Of a stretch of DNA of 64,000 nt, positions 6,001 through 24,000 are shown piece after piece. A program made the position numbers. Numbering within the stretch: position 1 is the first letter of the stretch; each line of letters starts with the position of its first letter. Origin of the DNA: Escherichia coli (GTDB lineage: Bacteria; Pseudomonadota; Gammaproteobacteria; Enterobacterales; Enterobacteriaceae); NCBI RefSeq assembly GCF_030013205.1, contig NZ_CP122648.1; one strand, 5' to 3'.

Positions 6001-9000
6001 CTCACTGGCAGAAGCCCAGGCCAAAGCGGATTCCGCATACAGCAATATGGGCCGTCGAGCTCCGGCCCCGTTTGCTGGTGAAAAGTCGATGGATTACCGC
6101 AAGCGTGCATTAATTGGCGCACAGAAGCTGGCTAAAAAATTCAGTGATGTGGATATTCGTTCCGTTTCAGATTCTGCAACGCTGGCGGTGCTGGAAGATC
6201 AGATTTACAAGGCTGCTCAGGAAAGTGCTCAGTGGGCCGTGGAAAACACGCCGGGTTATTTGACTAAAAAAGTCAGGATGGATGAAGCCGGGCGCCGGAT
6301 TACTGAATATCAGGGGGATCCGAATAACTGGCTTAGTGCTTTCAAAATCCCTCCCCGTCGCCTGGTCAAAATTAACGTTGCAAGCCTCGCGGGGGCATGA
6401 AAAACGTGCTGATTTCAGCCCTGCCGGATTTGGCGGGGCTTATTGATTATAACCGGGTGACATTATGCTTTTAACAGAAATTGAGGCGGCAAAGCAGATT
6501 CGGGACGGTCAGCTACCGTCGCCTTATCAGTTCTCCAACATGTGGCTGGTTAACCTGCGTATTACAGGGACTGGCATGGCCTACCGCGCCGAAGAAAAAG
6601 AATTTGTCTGGCGTTCACCGCAAACTTATCTCAATCCGCAGTTCCTGGAACGTTGCGCCGGAGTACCCGTCATTATCGACCATCCCGAAGGCAAAACCAT
6701 TGAAGACGTTGGCGAACGGTCGCGCATTATTGGCACCGTCATGTTGCCGTATATTCGCGGTGACGAGGTGTGGGGTGTATGCCGGATTTACGGGCAGGAA
6801 ATCATCGATTACATCCAGAAAGCACGGGGGGAGGTATCCACCAGCCCGTCGGTTGTGTTTTGTGGTGCGTCCGGTGGGGCAGAAGTTCCTGATGTAATGG
6901 GCGAGGACAATTTTTTCATTGAGGGTACGCCATTTCTTATCGATCACGTTGCGCTCGTACCGTTGGGCGTATGGGATAAGGGCGGGAAACCATCAGGTGT
7001 GGAAGTAACAACGCCGACAGAAGAAGAACAGCTCGCCGGAATGGTCCGTGAAGTTATTGATGCGGCCTGCAAGCCAGCTCTGGAAAAACTGGAAGAAATA
7101 TCCGGGCGGCTGGATCAACTGGAAAAAAACAGAGTGAGTGAATCATGAAAATTGCTAAAAACTTAAATCTGATTATCCCTGTGCGCACTGAAAAGGGTAA
7201 TGGCTGGCTCCATGCCACGCCGATCAGCAAAGAGGTGTTTAAAGAGCATTTCTTCATCCTGAGTAAAACCTTTTCTGCCATTTTTTCTGAAGGTCTTGGT
7301 GTTGTTGCGGGTCCGCGCGTTGCCTGCCTTATGCTGGAGAAAATCTCCCGTGACTCCGGTTTATGGGATGGGGAGAAAGGCATACGTAATACGCTCATAA
7401 ACGAAATTATTCGCCTGGCAAACCTTGTTTATCCAGTGGAGGGCAAAGGCTACGACACAATCCCTCTCGATATGGCGCTGGAGCGTGAAATCGTTGATTT
7501 GGACGAAGTGGCGGGTGAACTTGTTTTTTTTACATGCGTCTCGTCGATAAATTCCCCGGAGCAGACGAAGGGGACTATGGATGCGGTGAATGGAATATGG
7601 AGCACTCAATGCTCGTCCTTGAGTCTTACGGAATGGATCGATTCATTGCCGACATTGAAGCCTGCCGTCAGTTCTGGCGCGACGGCGAACACGTCATCAG
7701 CGACATCCTCGACTACTCAGCCGGAGCCGGATTCAGAGACATCTGTGCAGATTCCGGTCTGAATGTAAAAACAGCAGCTCAGTTTCGTGAGCTGCTCAAA
7801 TTCAAAAATCCCGCAGGAGTATTGTAATGTCAGGTAATCAGATGCCAGTTCTGACGCTGGACGTTAATGAAGAACACCTCAAACGGCTTGAGGCAATTTT
7901 TGAAAAGTATCGCAACGGGCTGATGATCGGCCCTGCCGGAACGCCGATGAAAATACCGGGGCAAAGTGGGCGCAGCGTGGGGGCAGGCTTACCCGTGGCG
8001 GCAAAATCTGGTCGGACAGGACCGGATGTATCCGGGAGAGTGAGGGACGAAAAAGGGCGCTTTGTCGGCAGCGGAAAAACAGCAGATTCGTTCGTAAGCA
8101 ACTATAAAGGTCGCGGCGAAACGATGTTTGATAAGTATCTCAGCGGGCTGGGGAAAAATGCCCAACAGACGCTGAAAACTTACAAGCAGATCAATTCTAC
8201 ACTACAGACGACCACTTCAAGATTAAACAACCTGTTTAAAACAACCGTATCGTGGGGAACAAAACTCTCGGTTATGGGCGTTGCCGGACCGTTTGGCTTT
8301 GGCATGATGTCCCGTAGTGTTGTAGAGAAACAGAAAAATGCAGATGAGCTGGTGGCAACGCCAGGAGAGTTAAAGGCGGCAGAAAGCACTTATTCGCCTT
8401 ATTTTTCCGGTGTTGGCAATGTGCTCAATACACTGGCAGCAGCACAAAATGATATATCGCATCCTGCCCGCGTCGGCCTGCTTAATCTGGGGCTAAATCC
8501 TGATAAAAACGCGACTGAAAACCTGCCTGTATTCCTGAAAAAGGTTGCAGAGCTGGCAAAGGAATATCAGGGAAGTGGTCTTACCCAGAGCATGCTCAGG
8601 GGAAGAGGGCTTGGATGGGTAAATTTTGGTCTTACTAACCAGTTAGTCAAATATCAGGACAAAATACCTGAACTCAACAAAGAGTTTTCGTTACGTGCAG
8701 CGCAGAATGATTCGTTACTGACCTCTGCACATACAAGTAAATATCAGAATATTACCAGTAACCTGGAAAAAAACTGGGATCGGCTTACCAGCGGATTTCA
8801 GGGAGCAATGGCGGGGAATGAAGACGCTTTAATCAGAATGTCTGATGGTGCCACGAATGCTGCCCTGAATTTCATGAATGGTGAGAACTTTAAAAGGATT
8901 CTGACGGATGTAGAAACGGGGCTGGATAAACTTGGTAAGTACGTAAATGGCCCGGATTTTAATAACGACCTGAACAATTTTGCCGAAAACGTTGCAAAGG

Positions 9001-21000: not shown

Positions 21001-24000
21001 TAGACGATATTGCTAAAAAGCAAGCACAGGCTGATAAAGCTAATGCTAAAGCACAATTAGCCGCTCAACGTGTAGTTGCAAGAGAACAAAAAGCCCTGGC
21101 AGCACGCAAAGAGAAGGCAGAATTAAAGCTTTTAGACGTTGGATCAAGCATTAGTGCAATGCACCGTCTTTCTGTAGCGGAACAATATAAAGCTATTGCA
21201 CAGGCTAGAGAAATTGCCCTCCAATATGAAAGAGGCGCTATTAGTCTGGCACGTATGAATAGCCAAATGAAACGCCTACAACAGCAACAACGTAAGATTA
21301 ATGGCAATCGTAACGCTCACGCTAAAGCCTATGCACCTGTTAAGGGTAGCGGGAGTATTGGCGGCGGTGCTGCGGCTGTTATGCTGGGTGGCTTAGGCGC
21401 TGGCGCTACGTATATGGCTATGAGCAAAGCCTCTGAATTTATGGCTAATAGCTTTGCGAATGCTGAAACAGAAGGGGAATTAATCCAACGTGCAAGGCTT
21501 GGTGGAGTTGATTACAACTTACTTAATAATCTTGAGCGTTGGGCTTACGATAACGGGATCGATAGCCTCCAGGGTGATCAGGGACGCAGAAAAATACTAG
21601 ATGCCATCGGTAAAGATGTGCGTGAACGTGCAACCAAATCTTATGACGAGGCTGAATATGTAGTCGATAAGAAAACAGGGAAAGGCGAATGGAAGGGCGG
21701 CGATAGCGGCATCAATACTTTAATGAATGAAGGATTCCTAACTAAAAAGGATCTAAAAGACTTTGCTGATAATCCGGCTGGTCTGGTTAGTAAAGCAGTT
21801 CAGGGAATGGTAGCTAAAGGCTATTCAGATGCACAAATCGGTAGTCGTCTGGAAGATCTGGCTGATGATTTGATGCTCACCTCTAAATACTGGACACGCT
21901 CCGCTAAAGAAGTGGAACAATCAGCACGAGAACAACGAGAATCAGGGCGCTGGGTAACGCAGGCACAACAGGAAAGCGTTATTAAATTCCGTGAACTGAA
22001 TAATGCACTTAGTGGGCTTTCTGACTCACAAGGGATCGCCTTTGTTGATGGCTTTATGAAATCTCTTGATCCGAAAGTGATTGAAGAGTTTAAAAAGAGC
22101 ATGGTTGCAATGCTGCCAATGTTTACCAAATTAGGCGAGGCTATCGGCGGATTGGTTAACGCTGTAATGAAAGCAATCAACTGGCTGATGAAAAACGACG
22201 AGAAGACGGCAGCTATTCAGAAGAATTTAGGTGATGCACCGCCACTATCTAACGAAGGAATGAAGCAGAATCTTTCTAATCTCACTCCTGATCAATATAA
22301 AGGCGCTGGCACCGGAACAACTAAGCCAGATAACAGCAATTCCCTGGTTAACACTATTAAAAGCTGGTTTATGCCAGAAGAAACGGTAGGTGGGGCGCAG
22401 GCTGTAAATCAATACAGTCTCGAAGGACAAAACATTGCAAATCTGAAACAGAGTGCAGCACAACAAGCTTTCAAGGCTCCTTCTTACACCTTTGCACCTG
22501 TTATTAACTTCAATCCAGAATTACAAGTAAATGCAGAAGTGCCGCTAACTATCGAATCAGACACCGGACGATTGAGCGAATTTATCGACTTCAAATCAAA
22601 GGCATCTTCCGCTGAGTTTAGCAAGCTATTTAGACTGGCCCCCTGAATCTCCAGACAACCAATATCACTTAAATAAGTGATAGTCTTAATACTAGTTTTT
22701 AGACTAGTCATTGGAGAGCAGATGATTGATGTCTTAGGACCGGAGAAACGCAGACGGCGTACTACACAGGAAAAGATCGCTATTGTTCAGCAGAGTTTTG
22801 AACCGGGAATGACGGTCTCCCTTGTTGCCCGGCAACACGGTGTGGCAGCCAGCCAGTTATTTCTCTGGCGCAAGCAATACCAGGAGGGAAGTCTTACTGC
22901 TGTGGCCGCAGGAGAGCAGGTCGTTCCTGCCTCTGAACTTGCTGCTGCCATGAAGCAGATTAAAGAACTCCAGCGCCTGCTCGGCAAAAAAACGATGGAA
23001 AATGAACTCCTTAAAGAAGCCGTTGAATACGGGCGTGCAAAAAAGTGGATAGCGCACGCGCCCTTATTGCCCGGGGATGGGGAGTAAGCTTAGTCAGCCG
23101 TTGTCTCCGGGTGTCGCGTGCGCAGTTGCACGTCATTCTCAGACGAACCGATGACTGGAAAGATGGTCGCCGCAGCCGTCACTCAGATGATACGGATGTG
23201 CTTCTCCGTATACACCATGTTATCGGAGAGCTGCCCACGTATGGTTATCGTCGGGTATGGGCGCTGCTTCGCAGACAGGCCGAACTTGATGGTATGCCTG
23301 CGATCAATGCCAAACGTGTTTACCGGATCATGCGCCAGAATGCGCTGTTGCTTGAGCGAAAAACCGCTGTACCGCCATCGAAACGGGCACATACTGGCAA
23401 AGTGGCCGTGAAAGAAAGCAATCAACGATGGTGCTCTGACGGGTTCGAGTTCCGCTGTGATAACGGAGAAAAACTGCGAGTCACGTTCGCGCTGGACTGC
23501 TGTGACCGTGAGGCACTGCACTGGGCAGTCACTACGGGCGGCTTCGACAGTGAAACAGTACAGGACGTAATGCTGGGAGCGGTGGAACGCCGCTTCGGCA
23601 ACGAGCTTCCGGCGTCTCCAGTAGAGTGGCTGACGGATAATGGTTCATGCTACCGGGCTAATGAAACACGGCAGTTTGCCCGGATGTTGGGGCTTGAACC
23701 GAAGAACACGGCGGTGCGGAGTCCGGAGAGTAACGGCATAGCAGAGAGCTTCGTGAAAACGATAAAGCGTGACTACATCAGTATCATGCCTAAACCAGAC
23801 GGGTTAACGGCAGCAAAGAACCTTGCAGAGGCGTTCGAGCATTATAACGAATGGCATCCGCATAGTGCACTGGGTTATCGCTCGCCACGGGAATATCTGC
23901 GGCAGCAGGCCAGTAATGGGTTAAGTGATAACAGGTGTCTGGAAATATAGGGGCAAATCCACTATTAACGCTGGGTGTTATGTCAGGCGGGTCAACCTAT

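Follow-up and report, generated by a model that had tools for sequence, protein, structure and literature searches.

Tail tape-measure genes in two satellite-like islands in tandem at an Escherichia coli tRNA-Gly site

Until 2025, phage satellites were thought to use the tails of their helper phages unchanged, and it was a study of the cholera satellite PLE and its phage ICP1 that showed a satellite with a tape measure of its own (PMC11838301). All PLEs encode a tail tape-measure protein (TMP), a chaperone and a baseplate hub (BhuB) that are 19-41% identical to those of ICP1. PLE virions contain the PLE TMP and exclude that of ICP1, their tails are shorter, as predicted, and deletion of tmp cuts transduction by 96-99.9% (PMC11838301). 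No other satellite was known to encode a TMP at the time of that study (PMC11838301). The present analysis concerns two mobile elements, island 1 and island 2, that lie in tandem at a tRNA-Gly site of Escherichia coli and that each encode a TMP, here called P1 and P2. Both lie in a window, by which the whole 64,000-nucleotide stretch of DNA analysed is meant, that corresponds at 100% identity to chromosome positions 959999-1023998 of E. coli ETEC4079, a porcine strain from Belgium.

Other described systems bear on such elements. Gram-negative PICIs (phage-inducible chromosomal islands) are defined by a core of int, alpA and pri-rep within some 10-15 kb, by a specific att site and by the lack of lysis genes and of a full set of structural genes (PMC6092414), and satellites of Mycolicibacterium named EPIPs have been reported, in a later preprint, with both a major capsid protein (MCP) and a TMP. 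The tape measure is also a target of antiviral systems, including the prophage defence Tab, the T4 protein Imm, which binds the TMP and blocks genome entry, and the Rta protein of PLE11, which blocks ICP1 tail assembly via the ICP1 TMP (PMC11838301). Phages in turn act against satellites: ICP1 encodes Odn, in which the DNA-binding domain of a satellite RepA is joined to a T5orf172 nuclease and which cleaves the PLE origin at the iterons (PMC8263062).

Satellite-encoded TMPs being known from PLE, what is new at this locus is their occurrence in an ordinary E. coli PICI and in a common, apparently undescribed family of elements. P1 and P2 are TMPs that show no sequence relationship to each other; probably, each belongs to a tail-core module that a satellite has taken from its own type of helper myophage and with which it would build chimeric tails.

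The two tape-measure proteins and their assembly partners

An original prediction, made from the DNA of the window, held that both islands encode a large, Gly/Ala-rich, partly coiled-coil protein with an architecture typical of tape-measure or ejection proteins, without any tail genes. The two open reading frames (ORFs), of 679 and 607 amino acids (aa), are real, and their lengths and profile matches are far beyond chance (E = 4e-292 for P1 with PHROG 7694; 1e-26 for P2 with the tape-measure family PHROG 16051, and 1e-29 for its intact form). The tape-measure reading has held up for both, P1 being the orthologue of the TMP of phage pPE4 and of Rac-type phages, and P2 matching gp134 of phage phi92 in addition to PHROG 16051.

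To judge from its matches and from the gene order around its phage counterpart, P1 is a TMP of the kind found in Rac-type temperate myophages. PHROG 7694, which it matches end to end, is a family without annotation, and the annotated TMP family PHROG 2276 matches P1 at aa 501-630 only. In pPE4, the order of genes is sheath (PHROG 205), a 147-aa gene, a 205-aa gene (gp55), the TMP gp56, baseplate hub (PHROG 196) and baseplate J; the P1 orthologue gp56 lies between chaperone and baseplate hub, 3' of the sheath, and therefore in the position of a TMP. Window positions 7145-9304 are 90% identical in DNA to phage vB_Apl-pPE4, and positions 7145-8264 are 85% identical to Escherichia phage Rac-SA53. 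Beyond aa 501, P1 and its relatives part: pPE4 and the island copy of RM9088 carry an SLT domain at the position where P1 has a lysozyme-like muralytic domain (aa 510-638). Structure matches of this domain include the N-terminus of Gp29 (PDB 9vvp, 1.6e-12) and an endolysin (PDB 7q47, 1.3e-10), which we take to be the unusual lysozyme-fold endolysin of phage Enc34, and in profile searches aa ~500-640 match muralytic domains of TMPs, endolysins and ejection proteins.

The gene directly before P1 encodes a G-like tail-assembly chaperone, which overlaps an extension in the -1 frame (Table 1). This frame is open from position 7519, and at 7525 begins a slippery run of eight T residues that includes the heptamer T TTT TTT; phage pPE4 keeps both the T8 run and the -1 extension. 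A T8 run with a -1 ORF whose end falls on the start codon of the TMP marks a G/GT-type tail-assembly chaperone, and frameshifting is predicted here. Ratios of non-synonymous to synonymous substitution rates (dN/dS) are 0.19-0.37 for comparisons that involve island-1 copies and 0.18 for the chaperone compared with the phage copy.

P2, on similar grounds, is a TMP homologous to phi92 gp134 (chain 21vq_V of PDB 21vq, E = 1.1e-18), which is itself taken as a TMP from its PHROG and phage annotations and from synteny. A tblastn search with P2 gave matches of ~30% identity in 134 phage records, nearly all of them myophages of ~145-150 kb (Phapecoctavirus, Justusliebigvirus), several of which annotate the matched gene as a tape measure; identity to the TMP of phage phiWec188 is also ~30%. 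Intact P2 (614 aa) is 37-45 residues shorter than the phage TMPs (651-659 aa), a difference that, at about 1.5-1.6 Å per residue, would predict a tail ~6-7 nm shorter. In the alignment of island and phage proteins, the first ~35 residues and the C-terminal third are conserved, and the phage proteins are longer in the helical N-terminal half. An AlphaFold2 model of P2 from a 5-sequence alignment is mostly helical, with one 93-residue helix at aa 19-111; its confidence is low (pLDDT 39.6), and secondary structure alone was therefore used.

The 607-aa form on which the original prediction was based does exist as an ORF, but it is not the native protein. It is an artefact of the insertion sequence IS2, which replaces the last 11 codons of the gene; the sister strain ETEC4067 keeps the intact 614-aa gene. 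The C-terminal end lost to IS2, LTLGVMSGGSTY, holds residues that are invariant between island and phage TMPs.

Beyond P2 (and, in the window, beyond IS2) follows a Dit-like tail-tube initiator, with structure matches to phi92 gp135 (PDB 21vq_N, 7.4e-54), to a tube initiator (PDB 9cuy, 3.5e-10) and to Pam3 gp17. It is 49% identical to a 235-aa gene directly after the TMP in phiWec188, in which the order is sheath, a tube-sized gene, chaperone (PHROG 3840), an 82-aa gene, the 651-aa TMP and the 235-aa gene; the order of TMP then initiator is common to island 2 and phiWec188. Each TMP adjoins a natural assembly partner, a chaperone before P1 and an initiator after P2, and the premise of islands without tail genes therefore fails. 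What remains of it is that neither island has sheath, tube or baseplate wedge genes.

The general layout of P1 and P2 is alike, as had been proposed. Each has one hydrophobic segment that reaches 50% G+A over 40 residues, at aa 411-450 of P1 (inside a hydrophobic stretch of about aa 398-455) and at aa 160-199 of P2, but the enrichment in Gly and Ala over the whole proteins is only mild (G 11.3% and A 9.4% in P1; G 7.4% and A 12.7% in P2). Sequence similarity between them is undetectable (best BLASTP E = 4.3), and a shared family is therefore rejected; pairwise alignment leaves the two proteins unrelated to each other, yet each is clearly related to a family of virion proteins. Pfam searches with both gave sub-threshold noise only (WXG100, DUF4897, TetR).

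Gene content and distribution of the islands

RefSeq annotation and scans made for this analysis place two mobile elements in tandem at the tRNA-Gly site, followed by the ETT2 type III secretion island. The two islands are delimited by two copies of the tRNA-Gly 3' end and by the tRNA itself, which lies just 5' of the window, as do the integrase, alpA and tRNA-Gly attL of island 1 (Table 1). An Rfam scan of window positions 1-27000 at E <= 0.1 returned no match. In ETEC4067, island 2 is found alone at the same tRNA, without island 1 and without IS2, and the tRNA is joined to the same downstream sequence. Both island types are again adjacent in RM9088 (L004 2381-29700), but at tRNA-Thr and in the opposite order, with a 20-bp tRNA-Thr repeat between them; the integrases there differ from those of ETEC4079, at 65% identity for island 1 and about 33% for island 2. 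The window contains two copies of IS2, the second at about 41029-42257 inside the ETT2 cluster, and this cluster also has frameshifted genes (SpaN-like, YscQ-like).

Table 1. Coordinates of features of the two islands in the 64-kb window
Feature	Coordinates	Strand	Remarks
Island 1	1..11404	+	right-hand 11.4 kb of a 14.3-kb PICI-type satellite
192-aa protein, C-terminal part of head protease/scaffold (pPE4 gp46)	5822..6400	+	64% to L001 5813-6199
227-aa DUF2213 protein, N-terminal part of pPE4 gp46	6465..7148	+	54% to L001 4907-5578
Tail-assembly chaperone (G-like), 205 aa	7145..7762	+	85% to pPE4 gp55, which lies between tube-sized gene and TMP
-1 frame extension of chaperone (GT-like)	7519..7827	+	79% identical to phage extension; stop overlaps TMP start codon
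P1, TMP of island 1 by its matches, 679 aa	7827..9866	+	PHROG 7694 over full length; 87.6% to pPE4 gp56 over aa 1-501
175-aa helix-turn-helix (HTH) protein	9918..10445	+	HTH_17 5e-4; PHROG 57 (terminase small subunit) 1.3e-6; weak match to small terminase/excisionase families
18-bp copy of tRNA-Gly 3' end	11386..11404	.	attR of island 1 = attL of island 2
Island 2	11404..26150	.	14.7 kb, or 13.4 kb after subtracting the 1331-bp IS2; tRNA-Gly 3'-end repeats at both ends
Small serine recombinase, resolvase/invertase type, 183 aa	13114..13665	-	Pfam Resolvase 5.7e-39, and HTH
Four 15-bp palindromes GTAACGnnnnGTTAC	14168..14324	.	33-55 bp spacing, in a 1.7-kb non-coding stretch
55-aa ORF	15562..15729	+	100% aa identity over 1-53 to inny gp185
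Rep-like winged-helix protein, 226 aa	15783..16463	+	HTH_36 and replication-initiator PHROGs, all weak
124-aa protein directly 5' of MCP	19017..19391	+	conserved in family at 30-70% identity
MCP, 342 aa	19408..20436	+	Pfam Phage_cap_E 1.1e-17
65-aa ORF directly 5' of TMP	20591..20788	+	conserved in family
P2, TMP of island 2 by its matches	20823..22646	+	607 aa as truncated and re-terminated by IS2; native 614 aa
IS2 insertion, 1331 bp	22631..23961	.	target duplication CTATT at 22626-22630 and 23962-23966; absent from ETEC4067
Tail-tube initiator, Dit-like, 225 aa	24051..24728	+	Pfam Dit_like 1.2e-27; RefSeq "phage baseplate protein"
Tyrosine integrase of island 2	24822..26042	-	Pfam Phage_integrase
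23-bp copy of tRNA-Gly 3' end	26128..26150	.	attR of island 2

With int, alpA and pri-rep within 14.3 kb between tRNA-Gly repeats, island 1 fits the definition of a Gram-negative PICI. Pfam recognises a P4-type integrase, Phage_AlpA (2.4e-19) and a D5_N/DUF5906/Pox_D5 primase-helicase, and the other genes annotated by RefSeq include AntA/B, Icd-like, DUF4222, ProQ/FinO and PerC genes. The cargo between PerC and the 175-aa HTH gene varies among relatives of island 1; this HTH gene ends the variable morphogenesis region of the PICI relatives and is kept where the cargo differs. Ahead of the chaperone, two proteins match separate parts of PHROG 6216, the 192-aa protein at profile positions 409-544 (E = 1.6e-46) and the 227-aa protein at positions 115-326 (E = 1.9e-79; DUF2213 at 3.9e-6). 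The two correspond respectively to the C-terminal and N-terminal parts of a single phage protein, and one phage gene has therefore been split, with its halves in swapped order. Both halves are intact and are also kept in relatives without the TMP, and the pair is a candidate for a capsid-remodelling function in island 1. The RefSeq label of NUDIX hydrolase for the 192-aa protein found no Pfam support.

The chaperone-TMP module has its donor type in intact, contractile-tailed Rac-type prophages at ttcA; these are carried by 88 of 5426 complete E. coli genomes, including many enterotoxigenic strains from pigs. In ETEC1732, a TMP-positive PICI lies 6 kb from an intact Rac-type prophage. Prophages of this type are putative helpers of island 1. 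Those of ETEC1732 (L040 7180-8398) and ETEC4067 (L041 27690-28908) carry, beside the lysis genes, a pair encoding an ADP-ribosyltransferase (scabin-related) and the B subunit of a subtilase-family AB5 toxin, and a gene of their portal region is annotated as the anti-CBASS protein Acb1.

Island 2 reads, in its left part, cargo, the serine recombinase on the minus strand, 1.7 kb of non-coding DNA, a 60-aa and the 55-aa ORF, the Rep-like protein and small ORFs. Its right part follows with ~1 kb of non-coding DNA, a 69-aa ORF, the 124-aa ORF, the MCP, the 65-aa ORF, the TMP, IS2, the initiator and the tyrosine integrase on the minus strand. Of a head set, comparison of the island ORFs with Pfam and PHROGs recovered only the MCP, beside small unassigned ORFs, and no portal, protease, connector or terminase was recognised. 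The 124-aa protein had no family match in the Pfam and PHROG searches; in its place phiWec188 has a head-decoration gene. The serine recombinase is conserved at the same end of integrated family members. The palindrome GTAACGnnnnGTTAC has only these four copies within the window, and the cluster is a candidate for the origin or for an operator of the island. At the left end (11850-12461), an 85-aa ORF is accompanied by a YecR-family lipoprotein gene on the opposite strand; both are possible cargo, for instance with surface or exclusion functions. The stretch at 17815-18808, directly 5' of the structural genes, is ~1 kb without an ORF of at least 60 aa and is bracketed by 17-nt inverted repeats (17836-17852 and 18788-18804). 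An invertible switch was considered there, as the element encodes a serine recombinase of invertase size, and no inverted orientation was seen among the few relatives compared.

Elements related to island 2 occur in 456 of the 5426 complete E. coli genomes (about 8%), always on the chromosome, and also in IMG/VR. They always carry the MCP, TMP and tube initiator in the same order, measure ~12-14 kb and occupy sites at tRNA-Gly, tRNA-Thr and yciQ/rluB; integrases of members at other sites are only ~33% identical, and the replication genes differ, being of a winged-helix or a DEAD-box helicase type. Prophage predictions of IMG/VR add a subfamily with the same order and with TMP 60-69%, MCP 71-74% and initiator 59% identical. 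The family has two MCP types, for which BLAST gives no alignment and which hhalign finds homologous (96% probability, E = 2e-9), and one member (L018) has a capsid of the second type and a tail of the first. Across copies, dN/dS is 0.10-0.24 for the TMP, at dS of 0.15-0.83, and 0.11 for the initiator. A comparison of the TMP with 100,044 species representatives found E. coli only, plus one distant metagenome-assembled genome, so that evidence for the family is confined to Escherichia and Shigella. No description of the family was found in the literature, the coverage of which was incomplete, and a literature search on satellites of Stephanstirmvirinae, Phapecoctavirus or Justusliebigvirus gave no relevant result.

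Another branch, with a TMP 85% identical, is represented by contigs of ~13.6 kb in about a dozen independent assemblies, among them L007 and the contigs L008 and L009 from ERR5014346 and GCA_949767545.1. The ends of one of these contigs overlap by 30 nt, and a second contig represents the same circle in rotated form. The circles have no integrase or recombinase and carry a DEAD-box helicase-like gene and a ~2-kb non-coding region, and an Imm_superinfect gene adjoins their TMP-initiator pair. Such circles could represent the element in a plasmid-like or a packaged form; no 13.6-kb circular relative was found in INPHARED, nor in PLSDB apart from a misfiled chromosome.

Several lines link island 2 to large virulent phages. 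The best phage relatives of its MCP (~25% identical), TMP (~30%) and initiator (~49%) are all found in Stephanstirmvirinae myophages of ~145-150 kb, such as phi92 and phAPEC8, the relatives of the MCP being myophages of 142-150 kb. Closer still is a short stretch of DNA: window positions 15551-16176, which take in the 55-aa gene and codons 1-140 of the Rep-like gene, are 96% identical to Justusliebigvirus inny, and positions 15551-15776 are 99.6% identical to phage muut. The N-terminal 140 aa of the Rep-like protein (window 15783-16202) are 87% identical to inny gp184 (L005 4233-5336), and a search for the island Rep domain in 50,697 phage records found inny only. At 367 aa, gp184 consists of this Rep-like N-terminus, a second HTH_36 and a C-terminal MUG113/T5orf172 domain of the GIY-YIG type, the MUG113 match being exactly at the cut-off (22.3 bits) and the T5orf172 match below threshold. 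It resembles ICP1 Odn in being a chimera of a satellite Rep DNA-binding domain and a T5orf172-type domain, and the palindrome cluster of island 2 is a candidate target for a nuclease of the gp184 type. The 55-aa ORF is 100% identical in L027, L028, L030, L032 and L034, which belong to subfamilies whose other genes are at 30-70% identity, and across the family the palindromes track the variant of this ORF better than that of Rep; the ORF may encode a regulator that island and phage have in common or contend for.

Proposed role of the tail modules and competing explanations

We infer from this gene content that the islands behave as satellites, that their TMPs enter virions and that they gain a selective benefit in doing so. 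During infection by a helper, the TMP of the satellite, carried by the chaperone or seated on the island's own initiator, would replace the helper TMP at the centre of the baseplate, and the helper tube and sheath would polymerise around it. With a satellite TMP inside helper tube and sheath, the particles would bear a protein for DNA delivery specified by the satellite, with a hydrophobic, Gly-rich segment for the membrane and, in the case of P1, a muralytic domain as well. Transfer of the satellite would in this way become independent of blocks directed at the TMP, such as tail-assembly blockers and superinfection exclusion of the Imm/gp15 type. The Imm_superinfect gene beside the TMP-initiator pair of the episomal relatives fits such independence and proves nothing.

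A number of observations weigh against this account. For island 1, the whole module is present at 80% coverage or more in just 13 of the 5426 complete genomes, and FDAARGOS_1058, a close relative, has the split scaffold genes without chaperone and TMP; given this rarity and absence, the chaperone-TMP insertion may be a recent passenger. The Rac site of ETEC4079 is empty of any prophage (the Rac site being the one examined), and the RM9088 chaperone has a slippery run of T7 rather than T8 and is flagged as frameshifted by RefSeq. In island 2, nothing was identified as a terminase, portal, pac/cos site or helper-responsive regulator, and at only ~25% identity of the MCP to phage counterparts, its co-assembly with a helper portal or scaffold is not obvious. 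No chaperone was recognised either, the 65/91-aa ORF 5' of the TMP having no PHROG match and no similarity to the 82-aa gene of the phage. The model of P2 is weak, and in the window IS2 also parts P2 from the initiator gene, so that the island-2 TMP of ETEC4079 is probably impaired.

Other explanations were weighed as well. The island TMPs, with chaperone or initiator, might act as dominant-negative poisons of helper tail assembly, in interference or defence, and be dispensable for transfer of the island itself. Blocking of tail assembly is a known defence of PICIs, P4-like elements and prophages (Tai, Tab, PLE11 Rta), structural homologues encoded by satellites can interfere, as does the SaPIbov5 capsid homologue Ccm (cited in PMC6092414), and island 2 has no packaging genes that Pfam or PHROG scans recognise. 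The known tail blockers, however, are small and unrelated to TMPs, whereas the island proteins retain conserved termini, the hydrophobic segment, a length near that of the helper (614 against 651-659 aa) and a matching initiator or frameshifting chaperone, under purifying selection along the whole TMP gene. In PLE, the sole case tested, the satellite TMP goes into satellite virions. Interference alone is on this evidence unlikely, and it would not be incompatible with a constructive role. The Tai system (He et al. 2024) was considered as an explanation in its own right and rejected, Tai proteins being small, non-homologous tail-assembly blockers and not TMPs.

Less probable again is that the modules are inert, as remnants of decayed prophages or, in island 1, as products of recent accidental recombination with a Rac-type prophage. 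The IS2 cut in the island-2 TMP, the frameshift annotated in the RM9088 chaperone, the scarcity of the chaperone-TMP insertion and the empty Rac site would all suit it, as would an IS1 in the capsid module of RM9088 and the ~90% nucleotide identity to phage genes, which points to recent acquisition. Island 1 is nevertheless a complete PICI backbone with a precise insertion, in which overlaps of start and stop codons are kept and ORFs are intact in several strains. For island 2, TMP genes at the low dN/dS given above do not look abandoned, and the idiosyncratic loss, missing common architecture and relaxed selection of decayed prophages are not what its family displays: one compact set of genes is found again and again, in hundreds of genomes and at varied sites with ~33% identical integrases, as circles and with modules exchanged between subfamilies, which argues against random decay. 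The alternative raised with the original prediction, co-option for capsid-size determination or for a role outside virions, is without support and highly improbable. Satellites commonly remodel capsids (PMC6092414), and neither island has tube or sheath genes; each protein nonetheless stands beside a tail-assembly partner, and each island has a better capsid candidate elsewhere, the split scaffold/protease pair in island 1 and the MCP in island 2. We know of no TMP that sets capsid size.

Acquisition of tail-core modules for chimeric tails thus remains the preferred account, and a more specific version of it for island 2 is possible and is advanced tentatively. Its family may comprise widespread Escherichia satellites of virulent Stephanstirmvirinae, with small capsids made of their own MCP and chimeric contractile tails around their own TMP and initiator, engaged in an arms race of the PLE/ICP1 style in which inny would have acquired the satellite Rep DNA-binding domain, joined to a T5orf172 nuclease in gp184, to cut the satellite origin. 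If so, E. coli and the therapeutic phages of the phAPEC8/phi92 group would give a tractable counterpart of the cholera PLE system, resident islands could alter the yield and host range of therapeutic Stephanstirmvirinae phages, which are present in phage-therapy collections, and the gp184 chimera would be a possible second example of an origin-directed anti-satellite nuclease. The same solution would have been reached twice at one E. coli locus, by a PICI through recent capture from a temperate Rac-type phage and by a separate family tied to virulent phages of ~150 kb. Should the modules work as proposed, replacement of the tail core would be a general strategy of satellites, selected for in large part by TMP-directed defences and by superinfection exclusion.

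Comparison with described satellites and phage tape measures

Both proteins resemble the TMPs of myophages (phi92 gp134, gp56 of pPE4 and Rac-SA53, T4 gp29) in having a helical N-terminal part, a hydrophobic Gly-rich segment and a conserved C-terminal end, and in being encoded beside a chaperone or a tube initiator, P1 having in addition a C-terminal peptidoglycan hydrolase domain. Unlike phage TMPs, they are encoded in islands of ~13-14 kb, outside a complete tail operon.

Island 1 shares with Gram-negative PICIs of the EcCICFT073 type (PMC6092414) its int, alpA and pri-rep genes, its length of 14.3 kb, the att repeats of a tRNA and a variable region beyond the replication module. The cargo of described PICIs includes capsid, decoration, terS or Rpp-type genes but no tail genes (PMC6092414), whereas island 1 has a chaperone and a TMP; its split and reordered scaffold/protease homologue also sets it apart from them.

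Island 2 is closest to PLE in organisation. Like PLE, it is chromosomal and has its own TMP with a partner from the baseplate core (30% identity to phage for the TMP and 49% for the initiator here, against 20% and 41% in PLE), its putative helper is a large virulent myophage, and a Rep-type protein lies beside a long non-coding region with repeats. The likeness is one of organisation only, functions here being read from genes, and the host is Escherichia. PLE uses the scaffold TcaP to remodel the coat protein of ICP1, whereas island 2 has an MCP of its own; it also differs in having a tyrosine integrase and a small serine recombinase, and in having no chaperone recognised by PHROG match or by comparison with the phage gene.

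Capsid-forming PICIs (cf-PICIs) have a full head set (MCP, portal, protease, connectors, terS) and use whole phage tails, whereas island 2 lacks such a complete set and combines an MCP, and possibly an accessory head gene, with tail-core genes. EPIPs have terS, adaptor, stopper and scaffold genes as well; the Pfam and PHROG scans found none of these in island 2. What cf-PICIs, EPIPs and the two islands have in common is that each is a satellite, or in the case of the islands a presumed one, that encodes some of its own virion proteins.

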